A stretch of DNA of 64,000 nt from an uncultured bacterium. GTDB lineage: Bacteria > Patescibacteriota > Minisyncoccia > UBA6257 > 2-01-FULL-56-20. The stretch covers positions 353,521 through 417,520 of the forward strand of contig CAWDZM010000001.1 of NCBI GenBank assembly GCA_963807165.1, written 5' to 3'. The translations under genes were made by a program, and so were the position numbers. Below are positions 8,775-61,239 of this stretch, in pieces; the stretch's first letter is position 1, and each line of letters starts with the position of its first letter. The notes under the pieces are model-generated. The model ran no database searches and had not been told where the DNA came from. It saw nothing but the letters and a program-made list of their open reading frames with translations.

Positions 8775-11700
8775 AGTTTCGTATAAGTTATATGAACAGG
8801 AGTTGTCACAGGAGTCCCTACGGTCGAAGTTACCTCAACGATAAACGCTTGCCCCGCAGGGTACGTAAGGTTCGTGCTGGTAGTTTGCCCTCCTATTCCA
8901 CAAGTGAATGAGCTTAGTATTGTGGAACTATTCGTCGTTGCGGTATCCGACGTAGGAATAAAGAAATAGATGGTCGTCGTCGCCACGGTATCATGACACG
9001 CGATCGAATTTATATTCACCGACTGCGGCGTGGTCCACTCCATAATGTTCGTCGTGTTATTTGTCGTCGTCGCGTTATCAATCACGAAGTTCCACGTTGA
9101 CGACGCAAGCGTTGAAGACACTGTAAGATTACTGCCGGACGTTCCAAGATACGCGCCCGCGCCGTAAATCGTACTGGTGCTAAATGCGTCCGCGCCGAGC
9201 GCGGTCGTCGTGGCCGTGCCACCGTTTGCTGCAGGGATGACGCCCGTGAGGGATATCGTGGTCGTGGTATTGCCTCCCGACGTGGCAACGGAAGTGGTGA
9301 CGTTCCCCGTACCAATGACATTGAAATTAATCACGCTCGACGTACCGTTGAACGTAGAAACATATGCCGTGGATGAAGATAAGAAGTCCGTCGTCGGATG
9401 CGTCGCGATCGATCCGAGTCCGAGGTTCGTCCTAAATGTTGACGTGTTATTTATATCAGAACCATTATTCGCCACGAGCATCGCGCCAGAAAGAGAAGTG
9501 AGGCATCCCGTACAGGTAAGGTTAAGCGTTGTTCCGTTTGAGAGCGATCCTCCACCGCCGAGCGGCGCGGCCGTGGCGATGGTGATAGAAGCGTTGTAAG
9601 TCGAGGTCGAAATGCCGCCGAAGTTCGCCAGCGCCGCTGCTGCCGAAGTCGCGTTCGATCCGCCGTTTGCGATTGGAAGCACTCCTGTGAATTGCGTTAT
9701 CGCGAGAGAGTTTAGTATGCCGGTAATATTAGAACCCGTCGTCGCAGAGAAATTAATTCCTCCTGCGGTCGTGGTGCTCAAGAGAGAAGCCACGTATGTT
9801 GTCGAAGAAGCCAAGAAATCCGTCGCAGGATGCGTGGCAGCGGAACCAAGTCCAAGATTTGTGCGAGCAGTTGAGGTATTCGTAAGCTCGGAGAGGTTGT
9901 TCGCTATTTGAAGATACAGGCCGTTGCCAGTAGATGAAGAGATATAATTATTCGAATTCGTCCAGCCGATCGCACCGGTCGAGGTGTTATAGGTGATGGG
10001 GTTGGTCGCGGAGAATAACGCATAGAGCGTTGAGGTGGTAAATGTTGTTGCGATGGATGTCGTGCCAGAACCCGTTACGGCGCCGGTAAGCGTGACGGTC
10101 TGGTTGCTGGTCAAACAAGTAGGACAACTGATGGTTGATGTTGAAGACCAGAGAATGGGAGAAAGAGCAGTAATCGAGGCATTGGTTAACCCACCAAAGT
10201 TGTTCGTCGATGTCGTGATGTAATGCGCATCATTCGCCCACTGGGAAATCGATGTGGTAGCAAAGTTTGCGGTGGTGAGGCCGGTGGAAGTGGAAATATA
10301 ATTGGACGGATTACTCGCGAGATAGAAGGATGAGCTATTTACGCCTTGCCATGTTCCCGCCCAGTTGCCGGTATTCGTGGCAATGCCAGTCACCGCTCCT
10401 GACGCGCCGTTAAAGGTTGAAACGAATGCGGTGCTTGAGGCGAGATAGTCGCCCGCGGAATGTGTGGCTATAGAACCCAAACCAAGATTGGATCGTGCGG
10501 CGGTTGCGCTCGCAAGGTCAGACAGATTATTCGCAGCTAGGAGCGCGCCCGAAAGCGAGGTCAGATACCCAGGATTTGTAAAGGTAAAGATGCCGGTAGA
10601 GCTGTTGTACGTAAGCGGGGTACCCGATGCCGAGAGCGCGGTCAAGGCGATGAAGGAAGAGGGATTCGCATTCGGATAATATGCGGTGCTCGTGAAGGCG
10701 TTGGATCCGAAGGAAGAAGTACTGAATGTGAGCGCAGCGCTCGTGGTCGTCGTCGAGATGGAAATAAAGGGATTTGCCGAAGTGACGGTGTATGAAGGGA
10801 TGCCGGTAGAGGTCGCAAGACCAGTGAAGACATTTCCTTGGACGCCGTTGATCGAAATGCTAGAAGTCGTGATATAGCCGAGCGAATTAGTCCAGCCAAT
10901 CGCACCCGTTGAGGTGTTGTATGTGATAGGCGCGGCGCCAGAAAGGGAATTCAAGGTGATACCACCAAAGTTGTTCGTCGATGTCGTGATGTAATGCGCA
11001 TCATTCGCCCACTGGGAAATCGATGTGGTAGCAAAGTTTGCGGTGGTGAGGCCGGTGGAAGTGGAAATATAATTGGACGGATTACTCGCGAGATAGAACG
11101 AGGAGCTATTTACCCCTTGCCATGTTCCCGCCCAGTTGCCGGTGTTCGTGGCAATACCAGTCACCGCTCCCGACGCGCCGTTGAATGTAGAAACATATGC
11201 CGTAGACGAAGCCAAGAAGTCCGTCGTTGGATGGGTAGCGGCCGATCCGAGTCCGAGATTGGATCGTGCAGCGGTCGCACTCGCGAGATCGCTCAGATTG
11301 TTTGTGGAAAGAAGTGCACCAGAAAGAGAGGAAATATATCCCGCGTCGTTAGCGAATTGAGAAACAGAGGTGGTGGCAAAGTTTGCGGCGGTAAGGCCGG
11401 TGGAGGTGGAAAGAAACGCCGTACTGTTGAACGCATTCGATCCAAAAGAGGAGGTGCTAAACGTGAGTGCCGCACTCGTCGTCGTCGTCGAAACAGAGAT
11501 GAACGGGTTTGCGGAGGTGACGTTGTACGAGGCGATGCCGGTGGAGGTCGCAAGACCGGTAAAGACATTCCCCTGCACACCGTTGATGGAGATGCTGGAG
11601 GTGGTGATATATCCAAGCGAATTCGTCCAACCGATCGCACCGGTCGAAGTATTGAAGGTGATCGGCGCGCCGCCAGAAAATAATCCGTAGAGCGTTGAGG

Positions 11701-13132
11701 TGGTGAAGGTCGTTGCGATAGATGTCGTACCAGAGCCGGTTACGGCGCCGGTAAGGGTGACGGTCTGGCTGCCGCTCAAACAGGTTGGGCAGCTAATAGT
11801 AGAGGTGGAAGACCAAACAATGGGAGAAATAGCAGTGATCGAAGCATTGGTGAGACCACCGAAATTATTCGTCGAGGTGGTAATGTATCCTGCGTCGTTG
11901 GCAAATTGAGAGATCGAGGTCGTGGCAAAATTAGCGGTGGTGAGGCCAGTGGAGGTTGCAAGGAACGCGGTACTGTTGAAAGCGTTCGATCCGAAGGAAG
12001 ACGTACTGAACGTGAGTGCCGCGCTCGTTGTGGTCGTCGAAACAGAGATGAAGGGGTTTGCGGAGGTGACGTTGTATGAGGAAAGACCAGCAGAGGATGT
12101 TGCATACCCAAAGCTATCCGTATATCCCCTAAGTGTGGCGGTTGTTACCGCGATAAGCTTTCCTGTTCCGTTCGTTGCGAGAAAAGGAGAGGAAATAATA
12201 TTCTCGTCGGTGATATCGCCGTTCACATCGAGTTTGGTTGCCGGTGCCGCCATCCCTATTCCGACATTCCCCGTAGAGGAAGAAAAGAAAAGCGTCGAGG
12301 TACCCGATAACCCTCCGGTGATGTTTGACCAGTAGGGAAAATTGAATGCGGTGACGGCGGAAGAAGTTGAGAGAGCGCCCGTGCCGCCGCCGGTAACCGT
12401 CAATGCGGTTCCCGTGGTGCTGGTCGTTGCCGAGCATCCCGAAACGCACGTCACGCTATAGGTTGCCGCACCGGTTTGTGTATTGAAAGATGACACGCCG
12501 GAATTCGTTGATGTGACATATCCCGCATCGTTCACAAATTGTGAAATGGAAGTGGTGGCAAGCGATGCCTCCAATGATCCAAAGATATTTTCCAAATTGA
12601 TCCCGCCGGGACCATTGCTATTCGCGTAATTCAAACCGATTGCCGTCGTCGAGGCGTTATAAGTGATCGGCGCGGTCACTATGAACGAACTCGACGAACT
12701 GCCGCCGCCGGTACATGTCCCCACGATAAGATCTCCCAAAGAATCGGTGCCGATGCAGGGAGCGTTCAACACATTGTCATCGCGGATATTTCCGTTGACC
12801 TCCAACGTGGTTGCCGGCGCCGCCGTCCCTATTCCAAAACGATCGGTCGTGTTGTTCCAAAAAAGATTTGCGTTGTTCTCATATACCGTTCCGCTCGCGT
12901 TGCCGATAAAAGGAACTGAGCCGGTGGTAAGCGTCGTCGTTGCCGCAAGCGGTGGGGTTACCGTGCAGTTGGGATCAGTTGGCCCGCACGAGGGGTTCGT
13001 TGTTTCTCCCGGCGCGTACGGAGAGAACGGCGGGGCAGCAAAAACCTTCGGCGCGCCCACAAAAACAAAAATGAGGGCGGCAAAAAATATCACGCCGAAG
13101 CACACGTTCTTTGTAGGTAGAAAATTCCTCAT
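8771..13132 (-). CDS. Giant (about 1,450 aa) Ser/Thr/Gly/Asn-rich repetitive surface adhesin-like protein
   Basis: The ORF is open to 13312. The probable start is MRNFLPTKNVCFGVIFFAALIFVFVGAPKVFA, a signal peptide, at 13132. The protein is built of 250-550-aa repeats such as SANPFISVSTTTTSAALTFSTSSFGSNAFNSTAF...SISQFANDAGYITTSTNNFGG. Near-identical DNA repeats occur within the gene. Confidence 0.7.
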   Translation of the reverse strand: MRNFLPTKNVCFGVIFFAALIFVFVGAPKVFAAPPFSPYAPGETTNPSCGPTDPNCTVTPPLAATTTLTTGSVPFIGNASGTVYENNANLFWNNTTDRFGIGTAAPATTLEVNGNIRDDNVLNAPCIGTDSLGDLIVGTCTGGGSSSSSFIVTAPITYNASTTAIGLNYANSNGPGGINLENIFGSLEASLATTSISQFVNDAGYVTSTNSGVSSFNTQTGAATYSVTCVSGCSATTSTTGTALTVTGGGTGALSTSSAVTAFNFPYWSNITGGLSGTSTLFFSSSTGNVGIGMAAPATKLDVNGDITDENIISSPFLATNGTGKLIAVTTATLRGYTDSFGYATSSAGLSSYNVTSANPFISVSTTTTSAALTFSTSSFGSNAFNSTAFLATSTGLTTANFATTSISQFANDAGYITTSTNNFGGLTNASITAISPIVWSSTSTISCPTCLSGSQTVTLTGAVTGSGTTSIATTFTTSTLYGLFSGGAPITFNTSTGAIGWTNSLGYITTSSISINGVQGNVFTGLATSTGIASYNVTSANPFISVSTTTTSAALTFSTSSFGSNAFNSTAFLSTSTGLTAANFATTSVSQFANDAGYISSLSGALLSTNNLSDLASATAARSNLGLGSAATHPTTDFLASSTAYVSTFNGASGAVTGIATNTGNWAGTWQGVNSSSFYLASNPSNYISTSTGLTTANFATTSISQWANDAHYITTSTNNFGGITLNSLSGAAPITYNTSTGAIGWTNSLGYITTSSISINGVQGNVFTGLATSTGIPSYTVTSANPFISISTTTTSAALTFSTSSFGSNAFTSTAYYPNANPSSFIALTALSASGTPLTYNSSTGIFTFTNPGYLTSLSGALLAANNLSDLASATAARSNLGLGSIATHSAGDYLASSTAFVSTFNGASGAVTGIATNTGNWAGTWQGVNSSSFYLASNPSNYISTSTGLTTANFATTSISQWANDAHYITTSTNNFGGLTNASITALSPILWSSTSTISCPTCLTSNQTVTLTGAVTGSGTTSIATTFTTSTLYALFSATNPITYNTSTGAIGWTNSNNYISSSTGNGLYLQIANNLSELTNTSTARTNLGLGSAATHPATDFLASSTTYVASLLSTTTAGGINFSATTGSNITGILNSLAITQFTGVLPIANGGSNATSAAAALANFGGISTSTYNASITIATAAPLGGGGSLSNGTTLNLTCTGCLTSLSGAMLVANNGSDINNTSTFRTNLGLGSIATHPTTDFLSSSTAYVSTFNGTSSVINFNVIGTGNVTTSVATSGGNTTTTISLTGVIPAANGGTATTTALGADAFSTSTIYGAGAYLGTSGSNLTVSSTLASSTWNFVIDNATTTNNTTNIMEWTTPQSVNINSIACHDTVATTTIYFFIPTSDTATTNSSTILSSFTCGIGGQTTSTNLTYPAGQAFIVEVTSTVGTPVTTPVHITYTKL
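9100..12300. repeat. Nested intragenic tandem repeats within the giant adhesin gene
   Basis: About 230 bp at 10190-10420 is nearly identical to 10960-11190, an offset of about 760 bp. Diverged copies lie at 10020-10230 versus 11690-11900, an offset of about 1.67 kb. The motif GTCCAGCCGATCGCACCGGTCGAGGTGTT recurs at about 9960, 10880 and 11630. Confidence 0.8.
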
Positions 13133-13159
13133 TGTCCCTATAAATATACCACAAAACCA

Positions 13160-14233
13160 ATGACGATTTACATCTATTTTTGGGGACATGATGTGAGTCG
13201 TGTTAGAATAGAACATATGGACGATAAGCGCGTCATCAAGGTCATCAAGAAGGTCATGCCTTCGGTCGTTTCGATCGCGATCGCGGAAAAGCTTGAGGAT
13301 CTTAAAAAACAATTTCCCAAAGATTTCAATCCAGAGATTCCCGAAGGAACGGTGGACGAACGCGGGATGGTGCAGACCGGCGGCGGATCAGGATTCATCG
13401 TGGCGCCCAACGGCTTGATACTCACCAACAAACATGTGGTAAGTGAAAAGAAGGCGGAATACACCGTCATTCTGAGCGACGGCCGCACATTCCCCGCCAC
13501 GATATTGAGCCGCGACCCCATCAATGACGTTGCGATTCTAAAGATCGCCGCAGAAAAACTCCCCTGCGTAAAGTTGGGCGATGCGACGAAGCTCGAGCTC
13601 GGGCAATCGCTCATCGCGATCGGCAACGCGCTCGGCATTTTCCGCAACACCGTTTCCGTCGGCATCGTCTCCGGACTCTCGCGCTCCATCACCGCGCAAC
13701 AGGATGCGGACGCGCCGCCGCAGGAGATGCGCGGCCTGATCCAAACCGATGCCGCGATCAATCCCGGTAACTCCGGCGGCCCGATCGTAGACCGCGACGG
13801 ATATGTGATCGGCGTGAACGCCGCGATCGTCTCCGGTGCGCAATCAATCGGCTTTGCAATTCCCGTCAACGCCGCGCGCCGCGACATCGACGACATCAAA
13901 AAATACGGCCGTATCAAACGGCCGCTGCTCGGCGTGCGCTACACGATGATCGACGCCCCGCTCGCAAAAAAAATGGGGCTTCCGGTGGATTATGGCGCGC
14001 TTGTCATGCGGGAAAGCGCGCATGACTACGCCGTGGTTCCCGAAAGCCCAGCAGAAAAAGCAGAGATAAAAGAAAAGGACATCATCCTTGAATTCAATAA
14101 TAGAAAACTCGACCGCGATCATCCTATTGTCGATTTCCTCGAAGAATCCAACGTTGGCGACGAAGTGACGTTGCTTATCTTTCGCGACGGAAAGCAGATT
14201 CCGGTAAAGACGACGTTGACAGAGCGCACGTAA
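13160..14233 (+). CDS. htrA: HtrA/DegP-family trypsin-like serine protease with a C-terminal PDZ domain
   Basis: VMPSVVSI...GSGFIV...LILTNKHVV (His)...DVAILKI (Asp)...GNSGGP (Ser)...PDZ-like LPVDYGALVM. An alternative start lies at 13217 (MDDKR). Confidence 0.85.
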   Translation: MTIYIYFWGHDVSRVRIEHMDDKRVIKVIKKVMPSVVSIAIAEKLEDLKKQFPKDFNPEIPEGTVDERGMVQTGGGSGFIVAPNGLILTNKHVVSEKKAEYTVILSDGRTFPATILSRDPINDVAILKIAAEKLPCVKLGDATKLELGQSLIAIGNALGIFRNTVSVGIVSGLSRSITAQQDADAPPQEMRGLIQTDAAINPGNSGGPIVDRDGYVIGVNAAIVSGAQSIGFAIPVNAARRDIDDIKKYGRIKRPLLGVRYTMIDAPLAKKMGLPVDYGALVMRESAHDYAVVPESPAEKAEIKEKDIILEFNNRKLDRDHPIVDFLEESNVGDEVTLLIFRDGKQIPVKTTLTERT

Positions 14234-43052: not shown

Positions 43053-44090
43053 ATGGATTTCGTTAAGCTCAACAAACTTAAAAAAGGCGACAAGATTGCT
43101 ATTCTCTCTCCTTCTTTTGCTGCGCCAGGGAAATGGCCTTGGGTATATGAATTGGGATTGAAACGCCTGCGCGAAGTCTTTGAATTAGAGCCGGTGGAAT
43201 TTTCCGTTACAAAAAAGATAGGCGCTTCAAAAGAAGAGCGATCCAAAGATTTGATTGATGCGTTTGAAAATAAAGAGATAAAGGCGGTCATCGCATCGCT
43301 CGGCGGCGATGATCAAATAACCTATATTAAAAATCTTCCTGTTACGCCATTCATCAATAACCCGAAGCCATTCTTTGGATTCAGCGATAATACCCATTTT
43401 GAAAACTTCCTATGGCTCCATGGCATTCCTTCGTATTATGGCGGATCACTCTTTACCGAATTTGCGATGCAGAAACGGATGGATCCGTATACGATCGAAT
43501 ATCTCAAACATGCATTATTTAACGAAGGAGAGTTCGAATTGAAATCAAGCGATACCTATAACGATATGGGGCTTGATTGGAACGATCCAGAGAACCTCGA
43601 CAAAGAGCGTATCTACGAAAAGAATGATGGATGGTTCTGGGATGGGACGCAAAACGCCGAAGGGATCACGTGGGGTGGATGCGTTGAATCCATTGACGAG
43701 CTTCTGCGACACGGGGTTCAGATCCCATCGCTTCAGGATTTCGAGAATGTAGTGCTTTTTACAGAAAGCTCCGAAGAGATTCCTTCCGCAGATTATGTCT
43801 ATCGCGTATATCGTGCTCTTGGCGAACGCGGAATATTGCAGCACGTGAAAGCCGTACTGACCGGTCGTCCGAAAGCATGGGAATTTGGAAAAGAACGCAA
43901 CGTGGAGGAAAAAAGTATGTACAGAAAATCACAGAGAGAAGCGATTACAAAAGCAGTGAAGCAATATAACCAATCGATTCCAATTATTCACAATATCGAT
44001 ATTGGGCATACCGCGCCGCAGATTCCCCTGCCGAATGGAAGACGAATACGGATCAATATGAAGGATGAGGAAATCTTTGTGGATTTCTAA
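43053..44090 (+). CDS. S66-family LD-carboxypeptidase (LdcA/MccF-like)
   Basis: KGDKIAILSPS, GFSDNTHF (catalytic Ser) and IDIGHTAPQ (His). It lies in the AT-rich island. Confidence 0.8.
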   Translation: MDFVKLNKLKKGDKIAILSPSFAAPGKWPWVYELGLKRLREVFELEPVEFSVTKKIGASKEERSKDLIDAFENKEIKAVIASLGGDDQITYIKNLPVTPFINNPKPFFGFSDNTHFENFLWLHGIPSYYGGSLFTEFAMQKRMDPYTIEYLKHALFNEGEFELKSSDTYNDMGLDWNDPENLDKERIYEKNDGWFWDGTQNAEGITWGGCVESIDELLRHGVQIPSLQDFENVVLFTESSEEIPSADYVYRVYRALGERGILQHVKAVLTGRPKAWEFGKERNVEEKSMYRKSQREAITKAVKQYNQSIPIIHNIDIGHTAPQIPLPNGRRIRINMKDEEIFVDF

Positions 44091-44099
44091 AATTAAACA

Positions 44100-44819
44100 A
44101 TGACAAAAAAGAAAAAAAGCCCAATATCGGTCCTTTTTATCGGAAATAGTTTTAGCTACTATCATAGTTTGCCAAAACTGATAGCTCGTTTCGCCAGCAC
44201 ATCAGGTTCGGGTGATCTTTTTGTGGATGGTGTTTTTCGCGGAGGTGCAACCCTTAAAATGCTCTAGGACGATGGCCAAGCGCTTAAAAAACTCCAAAGC
44301 AGAAAATGGGATTACGTTGTCCTTCAAGAGCGAGGGCGGCTGGGAGGTATCATTAAAAATGGCGTAGTTCATGTGGGAAAACCTCAGGAGTTTGCCAGAT
44401 ACGCAAGTCAATTTAATAAGGAAGCAAAGAAGAGCGGAGCAAAAACAATTCTCTATTGTCCTCCTTCATTTATTGGCATCGGCCTTCTTAAGGATGCGAA
44501 GAAACTAAATACACTGTATGCAACGGTAGCCAAAAGATTGCATGCTCAAATGATCTCCACTGAACCTGCCTTTACGCTCGCCATGAAAGAGCGACCTGAT
44601 ATAAGTTTGTTTGAGCGCGATGGACATCATCCAAATTCTGCAGGAATCTATCTCATCGCCAATTTGTTTTATAGAAAGCTGTTTCGGAAAAAGATATCCG
44701 ATCTCCCCTTAGAATCGTACTCGTCTAAATCGCAACATCTTCCTAAAAATCCCAAAGTAGTGAAATTATCCGACAGAGATGCTCGGCTTCTGTGGTCAAT
44801 CGCTAATCGGATGAAGTGA
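44100..44819 (+). pseudogene. SGNH/GDSL-like hydrolase interrupted by one in-frame TAG (codon 56, 44265-44267)
   Basis: MTKKKKSPISVLFIGNSFSYY...LKML-TAG-DDGQALKKLQSRKWDYVVLQERG...DGHHPNSAGIYL. The frame is continuous across the stop; ORF 44373..44819 is the downstream part. Confidence 0.6.
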
Positions 44820-44903
44820 TTGTTTAAAGACAACTTAACCTTAATATAAAACTCGACCCCACCAAGACTCGAACCGGATTTTCAATAAAATCGAAAACAA
44901 AAA

Positions 44904-45434
44904 GTGAGGTTTTTCAACACTTTTTTGAAACTAGTTCGAGTATCAGTGCAGGAGCAGCTTAAATCGTCAAGTCGAGTGCATCCGCCGATGTGGTATAATT
45001 TAGAAAACGTTATGCTTTCCAAATTAAAGCATTGGCTTAACGAGGAGGAATCACTAACAGTCAAGCAAAGAATTGGGTATACATTTCTTTATCCGGTTTG
45101 TTTTGTCATAATTATGTTCGGATTGGCGATCGGACATATAGCTCTTGATTTTATCGGAAGCGCTATAGCTACGCAGATCGTTCAATCTTCATATCCCACT
45201 AGTCCGTCCTGGGCAGTTGGCCTAGAAAACTTTTTTAACGCTGATTTTTGGGGTGGCCCAGTCAGCACGAATATGGAGAACATACTTACTATTTTTGTGC
45301 CGCTCTGTATTCTAGCGTATTCTATAATCGTTTTATGGGTATGGAAGTCTTTGAAAAAATCTGGCATTGTTGCACTGTTATTTATTCCTGACGTTATAAT
45401 TTATTTGATCGTTGCGGTCATCGGAATGCGGTAG
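44904..45434 (+). CDS. Hypothetical polytopic membrane protein (island)
   Basis: 4 TM helices. It shares a ...IVLWVWKSLKKSGIVALLFIP... module with the next gene. Confidence 0.45.
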   Translation: MRFFNTFLKLVRVSVQEQLKSSSRVHPPMWYNLENVMLSKLKHWLNEEESLTVKQRIGYTFLYPVCFVIIMFGLAIGHIALDFIGSAIATQIVQSSYPTSPSWAVGLENFFNADFWGGPVSTNMENILTIFVPLCILAYSIIVLWVWKSLKKSGIVALLFIPDVIIYLIVAVIGMR

Positions 45435-45599
45435 GTAATCCCTCCACCAGGTTCGAACACTTTCCACGATTCGGAGCATCGAAGGATGAGCGGGGCGAGA
45501 AGCCCGGTTTTTCTTTTTGTTTACTGTCCCAGCACTGAAATTCCAAGTCGCGAAGCCAAGGCGCCTTGTATTTTCTTCTCATGGTAATATCATTAAGTT

Positions 45600-46352
45600 A
45601 TGAATAGTCAACCGCTATCAAAAAAAGCTGTCGTCCTTTTTTCTATTTTATATCCGATTGCTTATATCGGGGGAGGATTAATATTTTTAATAATAAGCAT
45701 AATTCTTTCTGATAATGTGGCTCTCTCCAATACTTTTCCCATAGTAGTCATGGATGTTTTGTATGGGGGTGAATTACCTCCTAATGGAGTGAATGTCCCC
45801 GCATTTTTCCCATTGGCTTTCATTGCAATTATTGTTATTTGCATAATCGTATTGTGGATAAAAAAATCATGGATCAAATCATTGATTCCTTTGATTTTTA
45901 TTATACCTTTGGTTTTTTTTGCTTTTACTCAAATGTCAGCTTGGGATAAGCAAAATACTGAAATCAGCATGGCGAAAAGCGCAGCTGCTGAAAACGATGC
46001 TGTTCTTCAGTCAATTAATTCCAAAGAGATTTTTTACTGCGGCAGCAACCAAGCATATATTCAGTTTGAAGGCGGTCCTCTAAATAATGCTTATGCCATG
46101 TACGCTGTTTATAACGAATGGACTTCGGGTAATGGTAAGATAGTGGCGAAAGTTTTGCTTGCGGAACTTTTAGCCAACGGTACCGACTATTATATTTTCA
46201 CCCATAATTCTGAACAATATATAAATTATAAGAATATTAACCCGACTAACGCAGATTATTCGTCAAAGCTTGATTCCTGCGTTGATGCGCATGGTAAAAC
46301 TTTCTCACAATTGTATAATCGTGTCCAAAACTTACCAAATGACCAAGCCTAA
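45600..46352 (+). CDS. Hypothetical membrane protein with a C-terminal extracellular domain (island)
   Basis: The N-terminal TM bundle is paralogous to the previous gene (IIVLWIKKSWIKSLIPLIFIIP). Confidence 0.5.
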   Translation: MNSQPLSKKAVVLFSILYPIAYIGGGLIFLIISIILSDNVALSNTFPIVVMDVLYGGELPPNGVNVPAFFPLAFIAIIVICIIVLWIKKSWIKSLIPLIFIIPLVFFAFTQMSAWDKQNTEISMAKSAAAENDAVLQSINSKEIFYCGSNQAYIQFEGGPLNNAYAMYAVYNEWTSGNGKIVAKVLLAELLANGTDYYIFTHNSEQYINYKNINPTNADYSSKLDSCVDAHGKTFSQLYNRVQNLPNDQA

Positions 46353-53519: not shown

Positions 53520-54818
53520 ATGCGCAATAAATATAGGCTGTATATATTGACCTTCGCAGGGTGTGCGGGGCTTTGCGCCGCCCTCATTTTTGCTATAGGA
53601 GCGGGCATTATCGGCATCGCGCAGGCGCAAACCGCCACGACAGCAACTTCCACAGACACCACCACGAGCAGCAGCTCTCTACAGGCGGAGCTCGACGCCA
53701 ACAACCAGGAAATGGCGAGTCTGAACCAGCAGATCGCAACGTACCAGGCAGAACTGCAGCAGGTCGGTGCGAACAAAAAGACACTCCAGGCGGCGATCAA
53801 TGGGCTCGACCTTCAGCGCAGTAAGGTACAGACACAGATCTCACTCACCCAGTATCAGATAAAAAGCACCCAGATCCAGATCCAGCAGCTCGGCGGCGAG
53901 ATCGCGGACACACAGCAGTCGGTCACCTCGGACCAAACCGCACTCGCCGCATATATTCGTAGCCTCCAAAGGGCGGAGGCGAAGCCGCTCATTGTGCAGA
54001 TGCTTTCCTCCGGCGGACTCGTGCAATCATGGAGCGACCTGAACCAGACGCTCGAGATCCAAGGCGGCATCCAAAGCGAAATGCTGGCGCTCAAACAAGA
54101 AGAGGGCGCGCTCACAAACTCACAGACCGCATCGGAGCAAAAGCAAAGCACGCTGACGGCGCAACAGCAATCGCTCGCCACACAACAGCAATCGCTCGCG
54201 GCGACGGAACAATCAAAAAATCAACTCCTCACCGAAACCAATTCCCAAGAAGCGACGTATGAGAAATTACTCGCGGTGGCGACTGCGGAGTTAAATAGTT
54301 TCTCCGCATTCGCAGCGAACGCCGGCGGCACCAAGATTCTTGGTAATCAAACTATTTGTGACTCATGGGGTTGTTACTATAATCAGCGCGACGCGCTATG
54401 GGGTAGCTTGCCGCTCGACGGCACAAAATACACCATGGCCGCGGACGGATGTCTTGTAAGCGCCATGGCGATGGTGCTAACGCATTACGGATATAAAGAT
54501 GTGACACCGGAGACGATCAACGCAAACCCGAACGACTTTGCCGCATACTCCCCGGCATATCTTTTGACCACCATCAATGTTGACGGTGCGACCGCCACGC
54601 GCAAAACGACGGCCATCGATGCAACGCTCGCCACCGGCAACCCGGTGATCGTCGGTATCAATGCCTACGGCGGCACGCACTTTGTAGTGCTTGTAAGTGG
54701 GAGCAAGGGCAGCTACATCATGAAGGATCCGTATATCACGGATGGCAACAATATCAGCTTCTCCGCAAACTATTCCCTGAGAAGTATTTTTGCGATCTCA
54801 AAAGTCATCATCAGCTAG
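53520..54818 (+). CDS. PcsB-like secreted coiled-coil protein with a C-terminal C39-like/papain-like cysteine peptidase domain
   Basis: Signal peptide. A Q/T/L-rich coiled coil runs from about residue 50 to 260. CDSWGCYYNQRDALWG...ADGCLVSAMAMVLTHYGY...GGTHFVVLV carries a Cys...His peptidase_C39_2-like pattern. Confidence 0.7.
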   Translation: MRNKYRLYILTFAGCAGLCAALIFAIGAGIIGIAQAQTATTATSTDTTTSSSSLQAELDANNQEMASLNQQIATYQAELQQVGANKKTLQAAINGLDLQRSKVQTQISLTQYQIKSTQIQIQQLGGEIADTQQSVTSDQTALAAYIRSLQRAEAKPLIVQMLSSGGLVQSWSDLNQTLEIQGGIQSEMLALKQEEGALTNSQTASEQKQSTLTAQQQSLATQQQSLAATEQSKNQLLTETNSQEATYEKLLAVATAELNSFSAFAANAGGTKILGNQTICDSWGCYYNQRDALWGSLPLDGTKYTMAADGCLVSAMAMVLTHYGYKDVTPETINANPNDFAAYSPAYLLTTINVDGATATRKTTAIDATLATGNPVIVGINAYGGTHFVVLVSGSKGSYIMKDPYITDGNNISFSANYSLRSIFAISKVIIS

Positions 54819-54874
54819 CGGCGGCGGATAAAAAAAGAGGGTGGCTTTCGGCCACCCTCGCTACATTCCCATCC

Positions 54875-55204: not shown

Positions 55205-55635
55205 TGCCTCCCCTGCTCTCTTATTTTTATACCAAAAAACGCCGGAGGGCAAACGGGGGGAAAATGGCATATAATGAGCGGAGAGGTTTTTGCGATGACA
55301 CTCCCTAAAACGAAGGAAGAATGGGATGAATTTTCTCATGGGAGGGTGGTGAAAAGCTGCCCTCATGCCGGATGCAGGCGCGCACAATTCGTGAGGGCGG
55401 ATGAGCTCTGTATAAGATGCAAAAAACCGCTCAATGCTTTTCCGATATTGCATCACTCCCCACCTCCTCCCCCTCACTCGAGGGAAGCAGAAATGCAGCT
55501 CGCGTTGGGGGAGAGAAGACCCTTTGGATGAAACGGCAAGAAGCCTTCAGTAGCACCACCCAGCGCCCGCGCGGAACATCCGCCCGGGCGCTTTTTTTTA
55601 TCCCAAAGGTGTATAATAAAAAAAATCTCACGAAT

Positions 55636-56310
55636 ATGAGAATTCTCGTGGTCGAAGATCAAAAAGAAACGGCTGATACCTTAAAGCGCAAGCTCGAGGC
55701 GGAATGCTATGCCGTGGACGTGGAGCATGACGGCGAAAAAGGATTCTACAAAGCCCGCACGAACAACTACGACCTTATCCTTCTCGATAAAGGCTTGCCG
55801 GGAAAGAGCGGCGATGCAATCTGCGCCGAACTGCGCGAATACAAAATGGCCACGCCGATCCTGATCTTGAGCGCCGCGGCGGAGATCGAGGATAAAGTCG
55901 GACTGCTCAATTGCGGCGCGGACGACTATCTGACGAAGCCATACGCATGGAGCGAGCTCGCGGCGCGCGTGAAGGCGTTACTCCGACGTCCGGCACAGCG
56001 TGAAGGAAAAACGCTCTCCGTAAACGGTCTATCGCTCGACCGGGAAACATATTCATTCACCTTTAAGAAAAAGACGGAGTCGCTTACGCCGAAGGAATTT
56101 ATGCTATTGGAATATTTGATGAAAAATGCAGGGAGGGTTGTTTCGCGCGGAATGATCCTCGAGCACGTCTGGGATGACAGCGCAGATCAATTTTCAAAAA
56201 GCATCGAAACACATATCATGAACCTCCGCAAAAAGATTGACCCGCGAGATAAGGATGCTTTTATCCACGCAGTCCCCGGCCATGGCTATATCGTTGGCGG
56301 AAAGATTTAA
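55636..56310 (+). CDS. OmpR/PhoB-family response regulator
   Basis: MRILVVEDQ...DLILLD (receiver Asp)...winged-helix ...TLTPKEFMLLEYLM...HVW... Confidence 0.9.
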   Translation: MRILVVEDQKETADTLKRKLEAECYAVDVEHDGEKGFYKARTNNYDLILLDKGLPGKSGDAICAELREYKMATPILILSAAAEIEDKVGLLNCGADDYLTKPYAWSELAARVKALLRRPAQREGKTLSVNGLSLDRETYSFTFKKKTESLTPKEFMLLEYLMKNAGRVVSRGMILEHVWDDSADQFSKSIETHIMNLRKKIDPRDKDAFIHAVPGHGYIVGGKI

Positions 56311-56391
56311 TTTCTATTTAATAAGTATTTAATATGGTCTGAGTATAATGTGTGGGAAAGGTCGAAAAAATTTTGAATCCTACACACCATC

Positions 56392-56496
56392 ATGAGCAAA
56401 TTATTGGAAAAAATTCTAACCGACCGAACGGCACGCGAGCCGGAGGAGACCGAGACGCTTGCCGCGGCGCAAGATGAATTTGAGATCTGGGACTGA
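56392..56496 (+). CDS. 34-aa acidic micro-ORF between the response regulator and kinase genes
   Basis: MSKLLEKILTDRTAREPEETETLAAAQDEFEIWD. Its stop lies 5 nt before the kinase ATG. Confidence 0.2.
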   Translation: MSKLLEKILTDRTAREPEETETLAAAQDEFEIWD

Positions 56497-56501
56497 AGAC
56501 T

Positions 56502-57872
56502 ATGGATGACGATCTGTTAAGAAGGAATACTATCCTGAATATCATTCTTATCGGGTCCGTTGTGATGCTGGCAATTCTTGACGCCTTCGTCCTTTTCCAT
56601 TCCCTGCAGGACGGTGCACTCTATCCGGGCATTCCATTTGTAGTGTTTTCGGTATTGCCAGCATTCTTCATCCTGTTGTACATGCTTTCGCGCCGGGGAT
56701 TCTCCACACTTGCTTCATATCTTTTGATAGGAACGTACCTAGTAAGCGACAGCTATATCGCGTACCGCTATGGGGTCGGGATACCGGTGGTGCTGATCGC
56801 ATATGCGCTCATTATTGTGATGGCGACAATCCTATGTGGCACGAGGTTCGGATTCTTTATTACCGGCATCATCGCCGCGTTCATCATACCGTTGTGGTAT
56901 GCCCAACTCTACGGCATCGTCGTTGCCCGGGCGCAACAACCCAGTGCCGATGATGCCATCGTTTTCTCAATACTCTATTTCCTGATCATGATCGTCGCAT
57001 GGCTTTATAACCGCGAGATCGATCATTCATTGCACCGCGCCCGCACGTCCGAGCAAGCGCTCCGGAACGAACGTGATCTTCTGGAAGTAAAAGTTATTGA
57101 ACGGACCGAAGAATTGCGGCGAACCCAGCTGGAAAAAGTACAACAGCTCAATCGCCTCGCCGAACTCGGCCAGCTTTCATCCGGCCTCTTCCACGATCTT
57201 CTCAACCTCCTTAATGCCCTCTCGCTTCGCGCGGAAGACAACACTGATCCGGCGCTCGCGAGCGCGTTCGATACCGCAAAGCAGATCCAAAGTTTTATGT
57301 GCGCGGTGCGCAAACAGATCGGCAGCGGCGAAAAACGGGAATTGTTCTCGCTCATAGAAGGGATTGATCATGTCATCCAACTCGTTAACTACCAGGCGGA
57401 CAAGGAACGTGTTCGTATCGCCTTCGACCATGCCGCGCAGACAGATATGTTACATTTCGACGTCCCATTCAAATTTCAAGAGATCGTCATAAACCTACTA
57501 CTCAACGCCATCGAATCATACGAAGGCATTTCTCCTTCCGACACCCGCGCGCGGACCGTCGCGATAACAATCGAGGAACGCGCCGGCACGGCAACGCTCT
57601 GCGTGCGCGACAATGGCTGTGGCATGACGCCCGCGGTCCGCGCGCGGGTATTCGAACCATTCTTCACCACAAAAAACGCATCGAAAGGGATCGGGATCGG
57701 CCTTGCGACTATAAAAAATCTTATAGAGAAAGATCTTCACGGCACCATCGCCGTGGAAAGCAAGGAAGGGTGCGGTGCTACATTCATCGTCACATTCCCC
57801 ATAACCCATGAACCGCTACCAGAACATCATCGATCAGGCACTAGAACACATTCGGAATCAACAACTCCCTGA
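56502..57872 (+). CDS. Membrane sensor histidine kinase
   Basis: 5-6 N-terminal TM helices. H-box LSSGLFHDLLNLLNAL. N box LLLNAIESY. G boxes VRDNGCGM and GIGIGLA. Confidence 0.85.
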   Translation: MDDDLLRRNTILNIILIGSVVMLAILDAFVLFHSLQDGALYPGIPFVVFSVLPAFFILLYMLSRRGFSTLASYLLIGTYLVSDSYIAYRYGVGIPVVLIAYALIIVMATILCGTRFGFFITGIIAAFIIPLWYAQLYGIVVARAQQPSADDAIVFSILYFLIMIVAWLYNREIDHSLHRARTSEQALRNERDLLEVKVIERTEELRRTQLEKVQQLNRLAELGQLSSGLFHDLLNLLNALSLRAEDNTDPALASAFDTAKQIQSFMCAVRKQIGSGEKRELFSLIEGIDHVIQLVNYQADKERVRIAFDHAAQTDMLHFDVPFKFQEIVINLLLNAIESYEGISPSDTRARTVAITIEERAGTATLCVRDNGCGMTPAVRARVFEPFFTTKNASKGIGIGLATIKNLIEKDLHGTIAVESKEGCGATFIVTFPITHEPLPEHHRSGTRTHSESTTP

Positions 57873-59787
57873 TGGAAGTTTTTTAAGCCTGTCCGGCTTT
57901 AGACCGGATGATTCTTCCGAAGCTATTCCACGGCGGACAACATTCTTTACTGCGAACATCCTTGCGTGCCTCCAGGATATCGCCAGACCAACAACCGATA
58001 CGCAACGCCGTGCGGCACATTTTTTGCTGCGAGAGAAGAGTGAAAAGTGGTCATTCAATTATTGGACACGTAGAGCAGGCGAACGGCATGATGCCGCCGA
58101 ATCATCCTATCCAGCATATCCCGATGATCTCGATGATACATTCGCCGCGCTTGTAGCGTTGGCCCGGCACGATGTTGCCATCATTGATGGCCACGCTATT
58201 GCCGCGATCGCAAAGATGCTGACCGCGCGGGAGGTGGATATTGGCGGCCCGTATCGGACATGGCTCGTCGCAGACGCCGCAGCGGCGAAATGGCAAGACG
58301 TTGACCTTGTGGTAAACAGTACCATTGGCTATTTCCTTTCACTTATCGGCGTTCAGCTTCCCCGGTTAAAATATTTTATGGATGACGCCATACGTACCAA
58401 TCAACTCTCATCGCCATATTATCCCGGAATATTTCATGTCGGATATTTTCTTTCACGGTGTTATGAAAACTATGATGACGATAACAAAGCGGATGTCCGC
58501 GATATAGTGGCAAACATTATTGTAACCCGGCTTAGGAATGACTACGCACAAAATATGACGTCACTTGAATACGCGATGGCGATCTCATCACTCGTTAACC
58601 TCGGGCATACGGAATGGATTGATCCGGCGATGGTCGACACGTTCGCGGATCGGATAGTACAAGAGGGATTTTTACCCTATGCGTTCTGCATTGACCCCGC
58701 CCGCGAAGGTAAGCGATGCTACGCCGGGGCATCGGCGCTCACGGCCGCATTCTGTGCCCAGGCACTCAACAAATATTCCGCATGCAATGTTTTTTCTATA
58801 AAAGAAATTGGTGTGTTGGCGGAAACGCCTACAGATGATGACCATATCCGCGCACTCGCACGCGCCTTATGCCATACACTCAGACCAGATCTTCACACTA
58901 TAGCACTCGCCTCCCTAGAAAAAACCACCGATAAAAAAATCACTGCGCTTGCGTATGAATTCCGCGAGATATTATACAGGAAAGGGATGATCATCCCGCT
59001 TGAAATCATCGAACAACTTTCGCTCGCGAATCTTTATGGATGGATCGCATATGATATCTACGACGACGCACTTGATGGCGACGGAGAATATGCGTCATCA
59101 CTCCCCTGCGCAAACCTCTTCCTTCGCGCACTGAGCAAAATCTACGTCGGACTCGATGCCCGCATCGCTGGCGCACAAGCACTTTTTGATCGCACAATGA
59201 ACCTCGTTGACAATGCTAATGTATGGGAACAACAGTATTGCCGCATCACAATACGGGATGAAGCACCTCGCCCGCTTCCGCAGTTCGACGATTATCAAAC
59301 TCTCGCCGACCGGAGCATCGGCCACGCCATGGGACCGCTCGCCGAACTGCTCTACGCCGGATACGCCATAGATTCAGAGGAATATATCAACGTCGAACAA
59401 TTTTTCCGGCACTACCTCATTGCCCGACAACTCCACGACGACGCGCACGACTGGGCAGAAGATCTGATGAACGGCCGCATAAATAGTGTCGGCGCATACA
59501 TCCTGCAAAATTTCCGAGAAAAAAATATTCACAAGCACTCAACGCAAAAAATCATTGAAGTTATTTCTAATTTGAAAAAAATATTCTGGGAAAAAGTCAT
59601 CGACGATACAGTTATCTTGATCCAATCTCACATCATCGCCGCGCGGTGTGCGAGAGAATGTTCCCACGTCCTTGCCGACACCGACTTTATGGAAAGCACG
59701 TTGCGCGCGCTAGAGGCCGCCGCGCACCGCGCAATCAAAGAACGCGATAAGACGCTCGTTTTTCTCGAAGATTATAAAATGAAATAA
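57808..59787 (+). CDS. Terpene-synthase-like protein: N-terminal class II cyclase-like region plus C-terminal class I/isoprenyl-synthase-like region
   Basis: QQLPDGSF is a QW-like motif. PDDLDDTFAALVAL fits DxDDTxxxxAL. The C-terminus carries AYDIYDDALDGD and RQLHDDAHDWAED, two DDxxD motifs about 128 aa apart. The gene overlaps the kinase 3' end by 65 nt. Confidence 0.55.
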   Translation: MNRYQNIIDQALEHIRNQQLPDGSFLSLSGFRPDDSSEAIPRRTTFFTANILACLQDIARPTTDTQRRAAHFLLREKSEKWSFNYWTRRAGERHDAAESSYPAYPDDLDDTFAALVALARHDVAIIDGHAIAAIAKMLTAREVDIGGPYRTWLVADAAAAKWQDVDLVVNSTIGYFLSLIGVQLPRLKYFMDDAIRTNQLSSPYYPGIFHVGYFLSRCYENYDDDNKADVRDIVANIIVTRLRNDYAQNMTSLEYAMAISSLVNLGHTEWIDPAMVDTFADRIVQEGFLPYAFCIDPAREGKRCYAGASALTAAFCAQALNKYSACNVFSIKEIGVLAETPTDDDHIRALARALCHTLRPDLHTIALASLEKTTDKKITALAYEFREILYRKGMIIPLEIIEQLSLANLYGWIAYDIYDDALDGDGEYASSLPCANLFLRALSKIYVGLDARIAGAQALFDRTMNLVDNANVWEQQYCRITIRDEAPRPLPQFDDYQTLADRSIGHAMGPLAELLYAGYAIDSEEYINVEQFFRHYLIARQLHDDAHDWAEDLMNGRINSVGAYILQNFREKNIHKHSTQKIIEVISNLKKIFWEKVIDDTVILIQSHIIAARCARECSHVLADTDFMESTLRALEAAAHRAIKERDKTLVFLEDYKMK

Positions 59788-59865
59788 ACCGACGAGAAAT
59801 CAGTAGTATTCTATGATCGCTCAAGGTCGGTTCATATAAACCAATCATCGATCACGCCATTATCT

Positions 59866-59955
59866 ATGGAACATATGGATGATGAACGGTGTCCCTCGTG
59901 CAAGCACGAGCACACCGCGCCCGACGGCACCTGCCGCTGTGGGTGCGAGGAGTAG
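59866..59955 (+). CDS. Cys-rich micro-ORF (26-29 aa)
   Basis: MEHMDDERCPSCKHEHTAPDGTCRCGCEE. It lies between the terpene-synthase-like gene and the terminator. No Shine-Dalgarno sequence. Confidence 0.15.
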   Translation: MEHMDDERCPSCKHEHTAPDGTCRCGCEE

Positions 59956-59959
59956 GAAA

Positions 59960-59990
59960 CAAAAACACCCCGAAAGGGTGTTTTTGTTTC
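59960..59990. terminator. Bidirectional intrinsic terminator (A-tract, hairpin, T-tract) between convergent genes
   Basis: AAACAAAAA-CACCC-CGAAA-GGGTG-TTTTTGTTTC. Confidence 0.65.
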
Positions 59991-60039
59991 TTTGGATTAC
60001 CGCAGGGATAAGGATATGTCTTCCGCTTCTGCGGCTAGT

Positions 60040-61239
60040 TCAGTTCAACGAGTTCCAGATCGCAGGATCAATATCCCCGTCCAGCTTAAAGAACATTACG
60101 CCGCGAAGACCATACTGTTTTGCAAGCGCCACTTTTTGCAGTTCCGATGTCGCGTCGGGGAAAGATACAAAGAATGTGGTGGATGCGCTGGGATTGATCG
60201 TGTCCAACACCGGCGGCTCCGTGGAGGACACATAATTGGTGAGGTCGAGCGGTGCCTGGATATACGTGCTCGACGTGAAGGTAAAGCTCAACTCCCCTGC
60301 GTTATCGCGCACCGGCGTGGCGCCGACCGAATCCGCACGATCCATCGCATCAAAATAATCCCATGCGCGCACTTGCTGATAGGTAGTAACGTCATCATTC
60401 CACGAAACCTCATACTCGTAACCATACGTTGGGATACCCAACATGATCTTTCGTGGGTTGATATATTGGATCGCGTATTGCACGATCTTCGTAACCCAAT
60501 CCGGATCCGCCGTCGGCGAGTATAGCTGACCGTTACCGCCCTTGCTCGCATCAAGCTTGAGGTCCGTCGTCCCCTGATCGTACGCCATCAGACGCACCTC
60601 GTCACAATAGTGATTGAGCACAGAATAATTTTCCGCATAGGTAAGATTTTGTGGAATCGCAACATACACATTGCTCGGCGCTTCGCGCGGCACCACGGTA
60701 CACGTGAGCACTTTATTTTCGGCATGAAGGCGTTGCGAAAGCCCTTCTATAAATAATGAATAGTATGGACGCGTTGATGTCGACATCGCCTCGAAGTCAA
60801 TGTCGATGCCGTCGAAGCTGTTCGCCTTTGCGAGTTGAGCGATGCTTGTCTCTTCTGCCTGCCGCGCCTTCGTCGCGGAAAGGAGATTATAGATGCCGTT
60901 CGTGTCGAACCACGCAATCGTCGGGATTACCTTGACCCCGCCCGACTGCACCGCCGATATCCAGCCGGTCCAAAGGCCTTTACTGATCCCAAGATCATCT
61001 TTGATAGTGCCGGGGGTCACGATCTCATAAGAAAACGGACTTACTTCTTGCAACGAATCGAGATTGACCGCGATCTGCTGTTCCCCTGCCGTGCTCGTCC
61101 AATATGGCACCCACGCGCCGTAGTAAAAGGGCAATTTTGTGGCAGTTTTTGCGGTAGGAGTAGCCGCCGCAGACGCAAAAAACGGCACCGTACCTATAAT
61201 AAGTGCGACGAGTCCGGCTTTAATGAGGTTTCTCTGCAT
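60040..61239 (-). CDS. Secreted GH18-family (chitinase-like) glycoside hydrolase
   Basis: Signal peptide. DGIDIDFE is the GH18 DxxDxDxE catalytic motif. YDQG. Confidence 0.7.
   Translation of the reverse strand: MQRNLIKAGLVALIIGTVPFFASAAATPTAKTATKLPFYYGAWVPYWTSTAGEQQIAVNLDSLQEVSPFSYEIVTPGTIKDDLGISKGLWTGWISAVQSGGVKVIPTIAWFDTNGIYNLLSATKARQAEETSIAQLAKANSFDGIDIDFEAMSTSTRPYYSLFIEGLSQRLHAENKVLTCTVVPREAPSNVYVAIPQNLTYAENYSVLNHYCDEVRLMAYDQGTTDLKLDASKGGNGQLYSPTADPDWVTKIVQYAIQYINPRKIMLGIPTYGYEYEVSWNDDVTTYQQVRAWDYFDAMDRADSVGATPVRDNAGELSFTFTSSTYIQAPLDLTNYVSSTEPPVLDTINPSASTTFFVSFPDATSELQKVALAKQYGLRGVMFFKLDGDIDPAIWNSLN

Follow-up and report, generated by a model that had tools for sequence, protein, structure and literature searches.

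A conserved Patescibacteria cassette joining a two-component system, a small tryptophan-bearing peptide and a candidate fused terpene cyclase and prenyltransferase

We analysed a 64-kb stretch of DNA from an uncultured member of the Patescibacteria (contig CAWDZM010000001.1; the whole stretch is called here the window), in which four adjacent genes of the plus strand encode an OmpR/PhoB-type response regulator, a 34-residue peptide with a single tryptophan (Trp), a polytopic sensor histidine kinase and a two-domain enzyme of 659 amino acids (aa). This compact cassette is present in at least 300 species-level genomes; its enzyme family is without a Pfam or NCBIfam model and its 34-aa peptide family is unannotated. 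Folds, motifs and gene order suggest that the enzyme is a fused terpene cyclase and prenyltransferase, that is, a peptide maturase of the ChrPC kind working in an autoinducing circuit comparable to ComQXPA and PalPXQ, and we give this interpretation an even chance of being correct. Patescibacteria are host-dependent, have tiny genomes and for the most part resist cultivation; how they sense their partners or each other is poorly known.

A scan of one genome per species detected relatives of the enzyme in 300 genomes, and the locus counts given below refer to the best 80 loci, whose gene neighbourhoods were obtained by open reading frame (ORF) calling and clustering of the ORFs. The order regulator, peptide, kinase with six transmembrane (TM) segments, enzyme recurs in Paceibacteria, Microgenomates, Saccharibacteria, Doudnabacteria, CPR2 and other Patescibacteria. 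The initial annotation, made from the letters of the window, had considered such a gene set unusual in Patescibacteria; the family is on the contrary typical of the group, since these 300 genomes represent as many species and the best 80 loci are distributed over the lineages of the group. The kinase gene lies directly upstream of the enzyme gene, on the same strand, in about 71 of the 80 loci, and the regulator gene upstream on the same strand in at least 47. Two-component control of the enzyme, also proposed at that stage, agrees with a linkage conserved in about 70 of the 80 loci, but the main point had been missed, namely that the 34-aa ORF encodes a conserved Trp peptide, likely the substrate. 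Full-cassette loci L044, L048, L054 and L076, together with many 'binchicken' records, are titled Vitreimonas, Methylomirabilota, Dormiibacterota or 'uncultured Gammaproteobacteria'; the loci with titles outside Patescibacteria could be mislabelled or misbinned contigs, or could reflect a genuine occurrence outside the group.

The peptide gene (56392-56496, plus strand; product MSKLLEKILTDRTAREPEETETLAAAQDEFEIWD) has the layout of a precursor, with a conserved leader, a variable core and an invariant Trp33. Its family was searched by alignment and profile rather than with a single sequence, and the profile search, which covered 1.84 billion cluster representatives, retrieved 336 of them, all 34 to 79 aa long and always matching at their C-terminal end. 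The consensus reads MKxLLxKxLTDKxAR, followed by about 17 variable residues, (P/S/T)W and a tail of 1 to 6 residues; L9, R15 and W33 are invariant. Exactly one Trp is present in 193 of 197 peptides, 18 to 22 residues past the invariant Arg and in nearly all of them 1 to 6 residues from the C-terminus; no peptide ends in it, and its commonest position is the penultimate one (83/193). Cysteine is absent from 193 of the 197. The core is hypervariable and without conserved TM character, acidic in Paceibacteria and hydrophobic in other lineages. Between regulator and kinase the gap always measures 106 to 382 nucleotides (nt) and holds a peptide ORF of 33 to 42 aa that ends just before the kinase start, which in the window lies 5 nt past the peptide stop. 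This ORF has often been picked up by gene callers, each time under the label 'hypothetical' (61 matches), and a reverse look-up starting from the peptide gave in three of three matches, with independent gene calls, the order regulator, peptide, kinase and a protein of about 650 aa without Pfam domains. A cognate small Trp peptide encoded in the same cluster is a feature of Trp prenyltransferases, and here the peptide ORF stands directly upstream of the kinase gene in about 65 of the 68 loci with sequence at that place. By analogy with these systems the 34-aa product is likely the substrate of the enzyme, and therefore the four genes would form a cassette like ComQXPA or PalPXQ.

The enzyme ORF (57808-59787, plus strand) overlaps the kinase ORF (56502-57872) by 65 nt, as the initial annotation had reported, and the same overlap recurs in relatives L001-L005. 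In the public gene call P0001, of 587 aa, the start is placed 72 codons late, which removes 57808-58023 of the window and the first helices of the cyclase barrel, apparently because the overlap with the kinase was avoided; full-length homologues and a model confidence (predicted local distance difference test, pLDDT) above 90 for residues 1-70 support the long, 659-aa form as the right one. A database search returned 555 relatives, nearly all labelled 'hypothetical'. Neither Pfam nor NCBIfam gave a match above threshold for the whole enzyme or for each half, the only sub-threshold match being TED_complement (the alpha-macroglobulin/complement thioester domain), and a single-sequence search against the PDB gave none; only the family profile reached AsDMS. 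The AlphaFold model (pLDDT 92) shows two domains. The motifs first noticed in the window, a QW-like element, DxDDTA and two DDxxD, proved to be real, since they are conserved far beyond chance in an alignment of 90 full-length homologues, a check of conservation that had been suggested with them. Invariant are P105, D107, D109, D110 and T111 of PDDLDDT (58120-58140), D419 and D423 of the first Asp-rich motif (YDDxxD; DDALD at 59062-59076) and Q541, D544, D548 and W549 of the second (RQLHDDAHDW; Q541 and DDAHD at 59428-59451), and Q19, G23 and F25 of the QW-like QQLPDGSF (residues 18-25) are at least 90% conserved. The spacing of the two DDxxD motifs is 125 residues and not about 128 as previously given.

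The N-terminal domain (residues 1-334; 57808-58809) is predicted to be a class II terpene cyclase of monodomain type. It adopts the alpha/alpha-barrel beta-domain fold of these enzymes, and its best matches in both sequence and structure are AsDMS (9mhs, 9m7d) and MstE (6sbb). The family profile aligns D109, the middle Asp of the DxDD motif, on the general acid D323 of AsDMS (numbering of PMC12232559). With the same profile, the arginines R368, R370 and R415 through which AsDMS binds phosphate (PMC12232559) align to W162, D164 and P203. Because the phosphate arginines are replaced, a cyclase substrate without diphosphate is favoured, and therefore prenyl transfer would come first and cyclisation second, as in MstE and ChrPC. 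A glycosidase or LanC-like toroid was considered and rejected: glycosidases ranked at lower Z only, their identity was 4-12% and they have no DxDD motif.

The C-terminal domain (residues 343-659; 58834-59787) has the all-helical fold of trans-isoprenyl diphosphate synthases, including the first Asp-rich motif, and is best described as a prenyltransferase-like domain of this fold. Its local hhalign alignment with canonical synthases is collinear but weak (E 0.007), and Pfam finds in it no polyprenyl_synt domain (PF00348). A canonical polyprenyl synthase that adjoins the cassette in 16 of the 80 loci scores E 3e-53 with this same model. The family conserves neither the GGKxxR region that binds isopentenyl diphosphate (IPP) nor the RRG found behind the first motif, and it departs in this from canonical chain-elongating synthases. 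Just before the second Asp-rich motif stands Q541, at the place of the Gln proposed for Trp recognition (PMC13290415), although canonical synthases share FQxxDD and this residue is not discriminating alone. No class I terpene cyclase is among the top 60 matches, and the triad NSE/DTE, (N,D)Dxx(S,T)xxxE, is absent, the second motif being a DDxxD. For these two reasons the architecture is a class II beta domain joined to an alpha domain like that of isoprenyl diphosphate synthases (IPPS), and of the class II plus class I architecture announced in the initial annotation the isoprenoid-synthase alpha fold with two invariant DDxxD motifs stands while the class I assignment falls.

The kinase (456 aa, plus strand; HATPase_c E 9e-22, with H231 in FHDL) shows by hydropathy and conservation about six TM segments joined by very short loops, and hydropathy gives it no extracytoplasmic domain. 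The regulator (224 aa; 55636-56310, plus strand) matches Response_reg (E 1e-22) and Trans_reg_C (E 3e-24), and with NCBIfam only sub-threshold matches to many OmpR-family models; its ORF opens at 55417, and both the homologues and the Pfam fit indicate the MRILVVED start at 55636. As the most conserved member of the cassette it has a mean pairwise identity of 0.47, followed by the cytoplasmic part of the kinase (0.43), the enzyme (about 0.40), the TM part of the kinase (0.33) and the peptide core (0.22). This gradient, in which peptide core and kinase TM part diverge fastest, fits, without proving it, a co-evolving pair of signal and receptor.

Promoter regions of the window were compared with those of its relatives L001-L007. 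Ahead of the regulator lies a separate -10-like box, TGTATAAT (55610-55617, plus strand), which belongs to a GTGTATAMT conserved about 20 nt before the start and whose function as a promoter element is presumed; the GTGTATAAT box is present in the window and in all seven relatives. A second conserved region, TTAA..ATATTTAAT-N-GAGTATAAT, occupies the gap between regulator and peptide in the same genomes and includes the -10 box TGAGTATAAT (56340-56349, plus strand) of a predicted promoter for peptide, kinase and enzyme; GAGTATAAT is invariant in the eight related genomes, 42-50 nt ahead of the peptide ATG. Because the regulator has its own box and a second promoter-like region precedes the peptide, the cassette is not one simple transcription unit: of the single plus-strand unit with one terminator that had been described, the terminator hairpin is present and the simple unit is not. 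In front of the TATAAT box lie three ATTTAAT direct repeats with 11-bp spacing (56305-56333, plus strand). This exact triple repeat occurs once in the 64-kb window, with 0 expected from 100 shuffles, and at least three phased repeats were found in 8 of 65 loci against 0.85 expected. Phased direct repeats that overlap the -35 region are typical of activator sites of OmpR/PhoB-type regulators. By comparison with such boxes, the repeats are a putative binding site of the regulator, and their position in front of the TATAAT box suggests that it activates the promoter of peptide, kinase and enzyme.

Between this promoter and the peptide, the 5' untranslated region (UTR) forms in the minimum free energy fold a hairpin (56350-56385, plus strand) with arms GTGTGGGA and TCCTACAC and a loop containing AAGGTCGA (56358-56365). 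In about 29 of 65 loci, which belong to very different Patescibacteria lineages, the peptide ATG is preceded at 15-80 nt, in most cases 24-59, by a GGTCGA-type motif; the background frequency of GGTCGA is 0.21 per kb. The AAGGTCGA/G element (hairpin AAGGUCGA) is usually placed in a hairpin loop, the arms of which vary by lineage yet remain complementary, and the stem around it has a mean of 6.2 bp compared with 4.9 +/- 0.25 in shuffles. Rfam gave no match over 55300-60100. A role of AAGGTCGA as a genome-wide translation signal was rejected, as 6 were found in the window where 4 were expected. The loci also differ in their translation starts: in loci labelled Microgenomates or Saccharibacteria, for example L020, L024, L026, L032, L037 and L056, the peptide gene follows close behind the regulator with a very strong extended Shine-Dalgarno (GAAAGGAGGTGA), whereas in loci of the Paceibacteria type, the window among them, no Shine-Dalgarno can be recognised ahead of the peptide, kinase and enzyme starts, and only an ATCATG context recurs. 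On account of this difference, there seem to be two expression designs for one cassette. Farther upstream, L001, L003, L004, L006 and L007 carry about 60-140 nt before the regulator a conserved block of about 85 nt (GGGGCCCGTCGTCTATG...CCGGGCGCAAGTTCCGGCGGGTCCAC...), which looks like a tRNA or another structured RNA; it is absent at the matching place in the window, L002 and L005, where a T-rich stretch is found instead.

What was observed in favour of a peptide-maturing enzyme in an autoinducing circuit are the two folds, the invariant catalytic motifs, a peptide and a gene order that are both conserved, the neighbouring polyprenyl synthase and the repeats with their promoter box. From these we infer a role of the peptide as substrate, an order of the two reactions, export, sensing and autoregulation, which would work as follows. 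In the C-terminal domain, the two DDxxD motifs and Mg2+ would hold an allylic diphosphate of C10-C20, a donor supplied by a canonical polyprenyl synthase, often encoded next door; the domain would ionise this donor and attach its prenyl group to the indole of the one conserved Trp close to the peptide's C-terminus, the leader LLxKxLTDKxAR serving as recognition element. Next, with D109 acting as general acid, the class II cyclase domain would protonate the attached chain at its terminal double bond and cyclise it. The lipidated peptide would exit the cell or enter the membrane, where the six-TM kinase would sense it and phosphorylate the OmpR-type regulator. Bound to the three ATTTAAT repeats, the regulator would activate the promoter of peptide, kinase and enzyme and close a positive feedback of the ComQXPA/PalPXQ type.

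Several points weigh against this scheme. No polyprenyl synthase is encoded within the 64-kb window, and the conserved genes include neither a dedicated protease nor a dedicated exporter, ABC exporters being nearby in only 10 of the 80 loci. Both Asp-rich motifs of the enzyme are intact, whereas ComQ has only a pseudo-second motif, and the structure of the C-terminal domain is no closer to Ord1 than to elongating synthases. Kinase and regulator belong to families other than those of ComP and ComA, the regulator being of OmpR type, and the role of the peptide could be a different one, that of a small kinase regulator. A broader proposal, which we advance only tentatively and hold to be rather less than probable, is that Patescibacteria (Candidate Phyla Radiation, CPR) carry an ancient and widely shared system for signalling between cells or between symbiont and host, in which a ribosomal peptide with a cyclised terpenoid attached to Trp would serve as autoinducer; the fusion enzyme would produce it, a membrane kinase would detect it, and the circuit would act back on the promoter that drives it.

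The evidence from the structure and the peptide is shared by a reading in which the product has a different use. Instead of a pheromone, the modified peptide might be an effector lipopeptide, either membrane-active, antimicrobial or used by an epibiont for attachment to its host, and the two-component system would then regulate only its production or immunity, perhaps by sensing the product as NisRK senses nisin. Prenylated ribosomal peptides with cyclised isoprenoids have been described as natural products (PMC13290415), the composition of the core depends strongly on the lineage as noted above, and ABC exporters stand near some loci. The peptide gene is, however, tied to the kinase gene in nearly every lineage, the kinase is without an extracytoplasmic domain and immunity genes are not conserved; a single 34-aa precursor with one modified residue throughout the superphylum is more signal-like than an arms-race toxin, and we regard an effector as unlikely. 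If the small ORFs are set aside as unrelated, the enzyme might instead be a bifunctional class II plus class I terpene synthase under two-component control, in which farnesyl or geranylgeranyl diphosphate (FPP or GGPP) is cyclised in the N-terminal domain and the cyclic diphosphate ionised in the C-terminal one to give a free terpene. The invariant DxDDT and the two metal-binding Asp-rich motifs agree with this, as do the homologue P0060, which marginally passes the threshold of Pfam Terpene_syn_C_2 (E 1.4e-5), the NCBI name 'class 1 isoprenoid biosynthesis enzyme' given to one member of the family and the polyprenyl synthase adjoining some loci; we nevertheless find a free-terpene synthase quite improbable.

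Different chemistry would be required of a fusion like the fungal PvCPS, in which the C-terminal domain would elongate chains and feed the class II domain, and a cyclic prenyl diphosphate of drimenyl or copalyl type would be released that could serve a membrane lipid or a small-molecule signal. The missing polyprenyl_synt match and the unconserved GGKxxR and RRG speak against elongation, which would moreover be redundant since a separate canonical synthase adjoins the cassette in 20% of loci; the cyclase domain lacks the diphosphate site of AsDMS, and the peptide is left unexplained, so that such a fusion seems highly improbable. The least probable reading of all makes the peptide a small protein partner of the kinase or regulator, like MgrB or SafA, with the kinase sensing in the membrane an isoprenoid made by the enzyme. 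Its leader is conserved in the way of protein-protein interfaces, it is translationally coupled to the kinase and not to the enzyme, and the kinase is an intramembrane sensor; against a partner role stand the hypervariable core without conserved TM character, the presence of one invariant Trp whose distance from the C-terminus is fixed, which is a hallmark of the substrates ComX, PalX and StheX, and the fold of the enzyme, which is that of Trp prenyltransferases.

Downstream of the enzyme, a small ORF (59866-59955, plus strand) encodes 29 aa with the pattern CxxC-x10-CxCxC. It had been left open whether this was a coincidental ORF or a real small protein, and the second possibility prevails: tblastn found it with 69-75% amino-acid identity in L002, L003 and L004, where it is only loosely linked, 0.6-1.4 kb downstream of the enzyme gene. 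About 60 nt upstream of it are conserved as well, including CAAGGTCGR at 59822-59830, and the ORF is absent from the other lineages. Judged by this conservation, it is a real lineage-specific small protein outside the widely conserved cassette, and probably a metal-binding one. In the window (59815-59853) and in L002-L004 the stretch upstream of the Cys-rich ORF contains an AAGGTCGR element that also occurs in the Trp peptide's 5' UTR, and the GGTCGA-type element may be a cis-regulatory RNA element shared by both small genes. All five ORFs of the region (regulator, 34-aa peptide, kinase, 659-aa enzyme and Cys-rich ORF) appear in the ORF list as they had been described. The region is closed by a bidirectional intrinsic terminator (59954-59992) with a perfect 17-bp stem (-23.2 kcal/mol), which a simple terminator scan missed and which was recognised by sequence and folding; a GH18-family gene, running from 61239 to 60040, converges on it.

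On the other side, two genes upstream of the cassette, a 432-aa protein (53520-54818, plus strand) has a hydrophobic N-terminal segment, a long Gln/Thr-rich coiled coil and a weak C39-like peptidase domain (E 5e-5 and 3e-4), and its gene ends at a strong terminator (54837-54859). A link between this peptidase gene and the cassette was rejected, as it is not conserved beside the cassette in other loci. In the closest relatives L001, L004 and L006 two minus-strand genes upstream of the cassette, of about 280 and 660-670 aa, resemble subunits II and I of heme-copper oxidases, their translations being judged by eye. Elsewhere in the window, the GC content falls to 0.40 at 44001-46000 compared with about 0.51, and the GC skew reaches +0.25 at 10001-12000, inside a minus-strand ORF of 1513 aa (8771-13312).

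As for novelty, neither the combination of folds nor the chemistry, in which Trp is prenylated and the chain then cyclised, is new, both being known since 2024, and knowledge of pheromone cassettes with a prenylated Trp is older. New are the unannotated enzyme family with its permuted domain order, the family of very short precursors, their union with a two-component circuit and the spread across Patescibacteria. In the library searched we found no relevant literature linking Patescibacteria/CPR to terpene synthases, to ComQ/ComX or to peptide pheromones, with the reservation that the survey of Hubrich et al. 2024 may include some of the sequences, and a field perspective on Patescibacteria is without the terms two-component, quorum, histidine kinase and signaling (PMC11665869). 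A signalling cassette common to Patescibacteria thus appears to be undescribed. Should the proposed circuit be confirmed, it would be the first of quorum-sensing type described for the superphylum, with a new pheromone chemotype; it would extend terpenoid-peptide hybrid chemistry to a huge uncultured lineage and tie it to signalling instead of natural-product toxicity, and a synthetic pheromone would become a molecular handle to manipulate or enrich Patescibacteria. Should it prove wrong, the enzyme family would still represent a new architecture of cyclase and synthase folds.

Among known systems, bifunctional terpene synthases, whether class II/class I or prenyltransferase/class II, share the general plan of the enzyme. 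Abietadiene synthase, PvCPS and the bacterial tridomain synthases (PMC12164552) also combine an alpha domain with a class II domain, and thus two isoprenoid active sites per chain, but they are beta-gamma didomain cyclases acting on free diphosphates; the cassette enzyme has a single beta domain, no gamma domain, no NSE/DTE and a co-conserved peptide. AsDMS and MstE resemble its N-terminal domain in the beta-domain barrel, the position of the general-acid Asp and the motif PDDLD(D/T)T. AsDMS is fused to a HAD phosphatase and binds the diphosphate of FPP with the three arginines that are W, D and P in the cassette enzyme, whereas MstE stands alone and cyclises a prenylated arene, which makes it the closer functional analogy.

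Closer in gene content is ComQXPA of Bacillus, in which the IPPS-fold ComQ prenylates a Trp near the C-terminus of ComX, the polytopic kinase ComP senses the product and ComA is the regulator (PMC4008528, PMC5331326). Both systems consist of four adjacent genes on the same strand, which encode an enzyme of IPPS fold, a small pre-peptide whose Trp lies close to the C-terminus, a polytopic kinase and a regulator, and in both the peptide, enzyme and kinase sensor diverge faster than the regulator. They differ in gene order, which is permuted here (regulator, peptide, kinase, enzyme), in the extra class II cyclase domain and intact second Asp-rich motif of the cassette enzyme, and in the regulator, of OmpR/PhoB type (Trans_reg_C) here and of NarL type in ComA. 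Orthology therefore does not hold, and because of its regulator the cassette is analogous to ComQXPA rather than a member of it; no sequence similarity to ComX or ComQ was found with the libraries used, which contained no sequence or model of ComQ (IPR033965), PalQ or ChrPC. A similar likeness exists with PalP-PalX-PalQ of Paenibacillus alvei, where a kinase is combined with a peptide that has a C-terminal Trp and with an alpha-fold enzyme that prenylates Trp and was formerly annotated as terpene synthase (PMC10853753), and with StheX of Sphaerobacter, prenylated at a Trp second from the C-terminus, the commonest position in the cassette peptides too, and its ComQ homologue StheQ (bioRxiv 10.64898/2026.08.29.745113): shared are the kinase gene, a peptide whose conserved Trp is C-terminal or penultimate, and a Trp prenyltransferase of isoprenoid-synthase fold. 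PalX has an NHLP leader and its Trp must be last, whereas the cassette Trp is never last and is followed by a tail of at least one residue, and a cyclase domain is found in the cassette enzyme only.

The nearest likeness is to the fused maturases NctPC and ChrPC, which are reported to attach a prenyl chain to Trp and to cyclise it afterwards through an MstE-like domain (Hubrich et al. 2024, via PMC13290415), the transferase of ChrPC being similar to trans-isoprenyl diphosphate synthases (PMC13290415). They resemble the cassette enzyme in joining a prenyltransferase and an MstE-like monodomain class II cyclase in one polypeptide with a Trp precursor encoded nearby, and this same combination, in one chain beside the gene of a Trp precursor, is found here. 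Three differences from these maturases can be named: the cassette enzyme carries its cyclase at the N-terminus and its transferase at the C-terminus; its precursor has only 34-40 aa and is not of proteusin or NHLP type; and its genes lie inside a two-component signalling unit that has spread across Patescibacteria.

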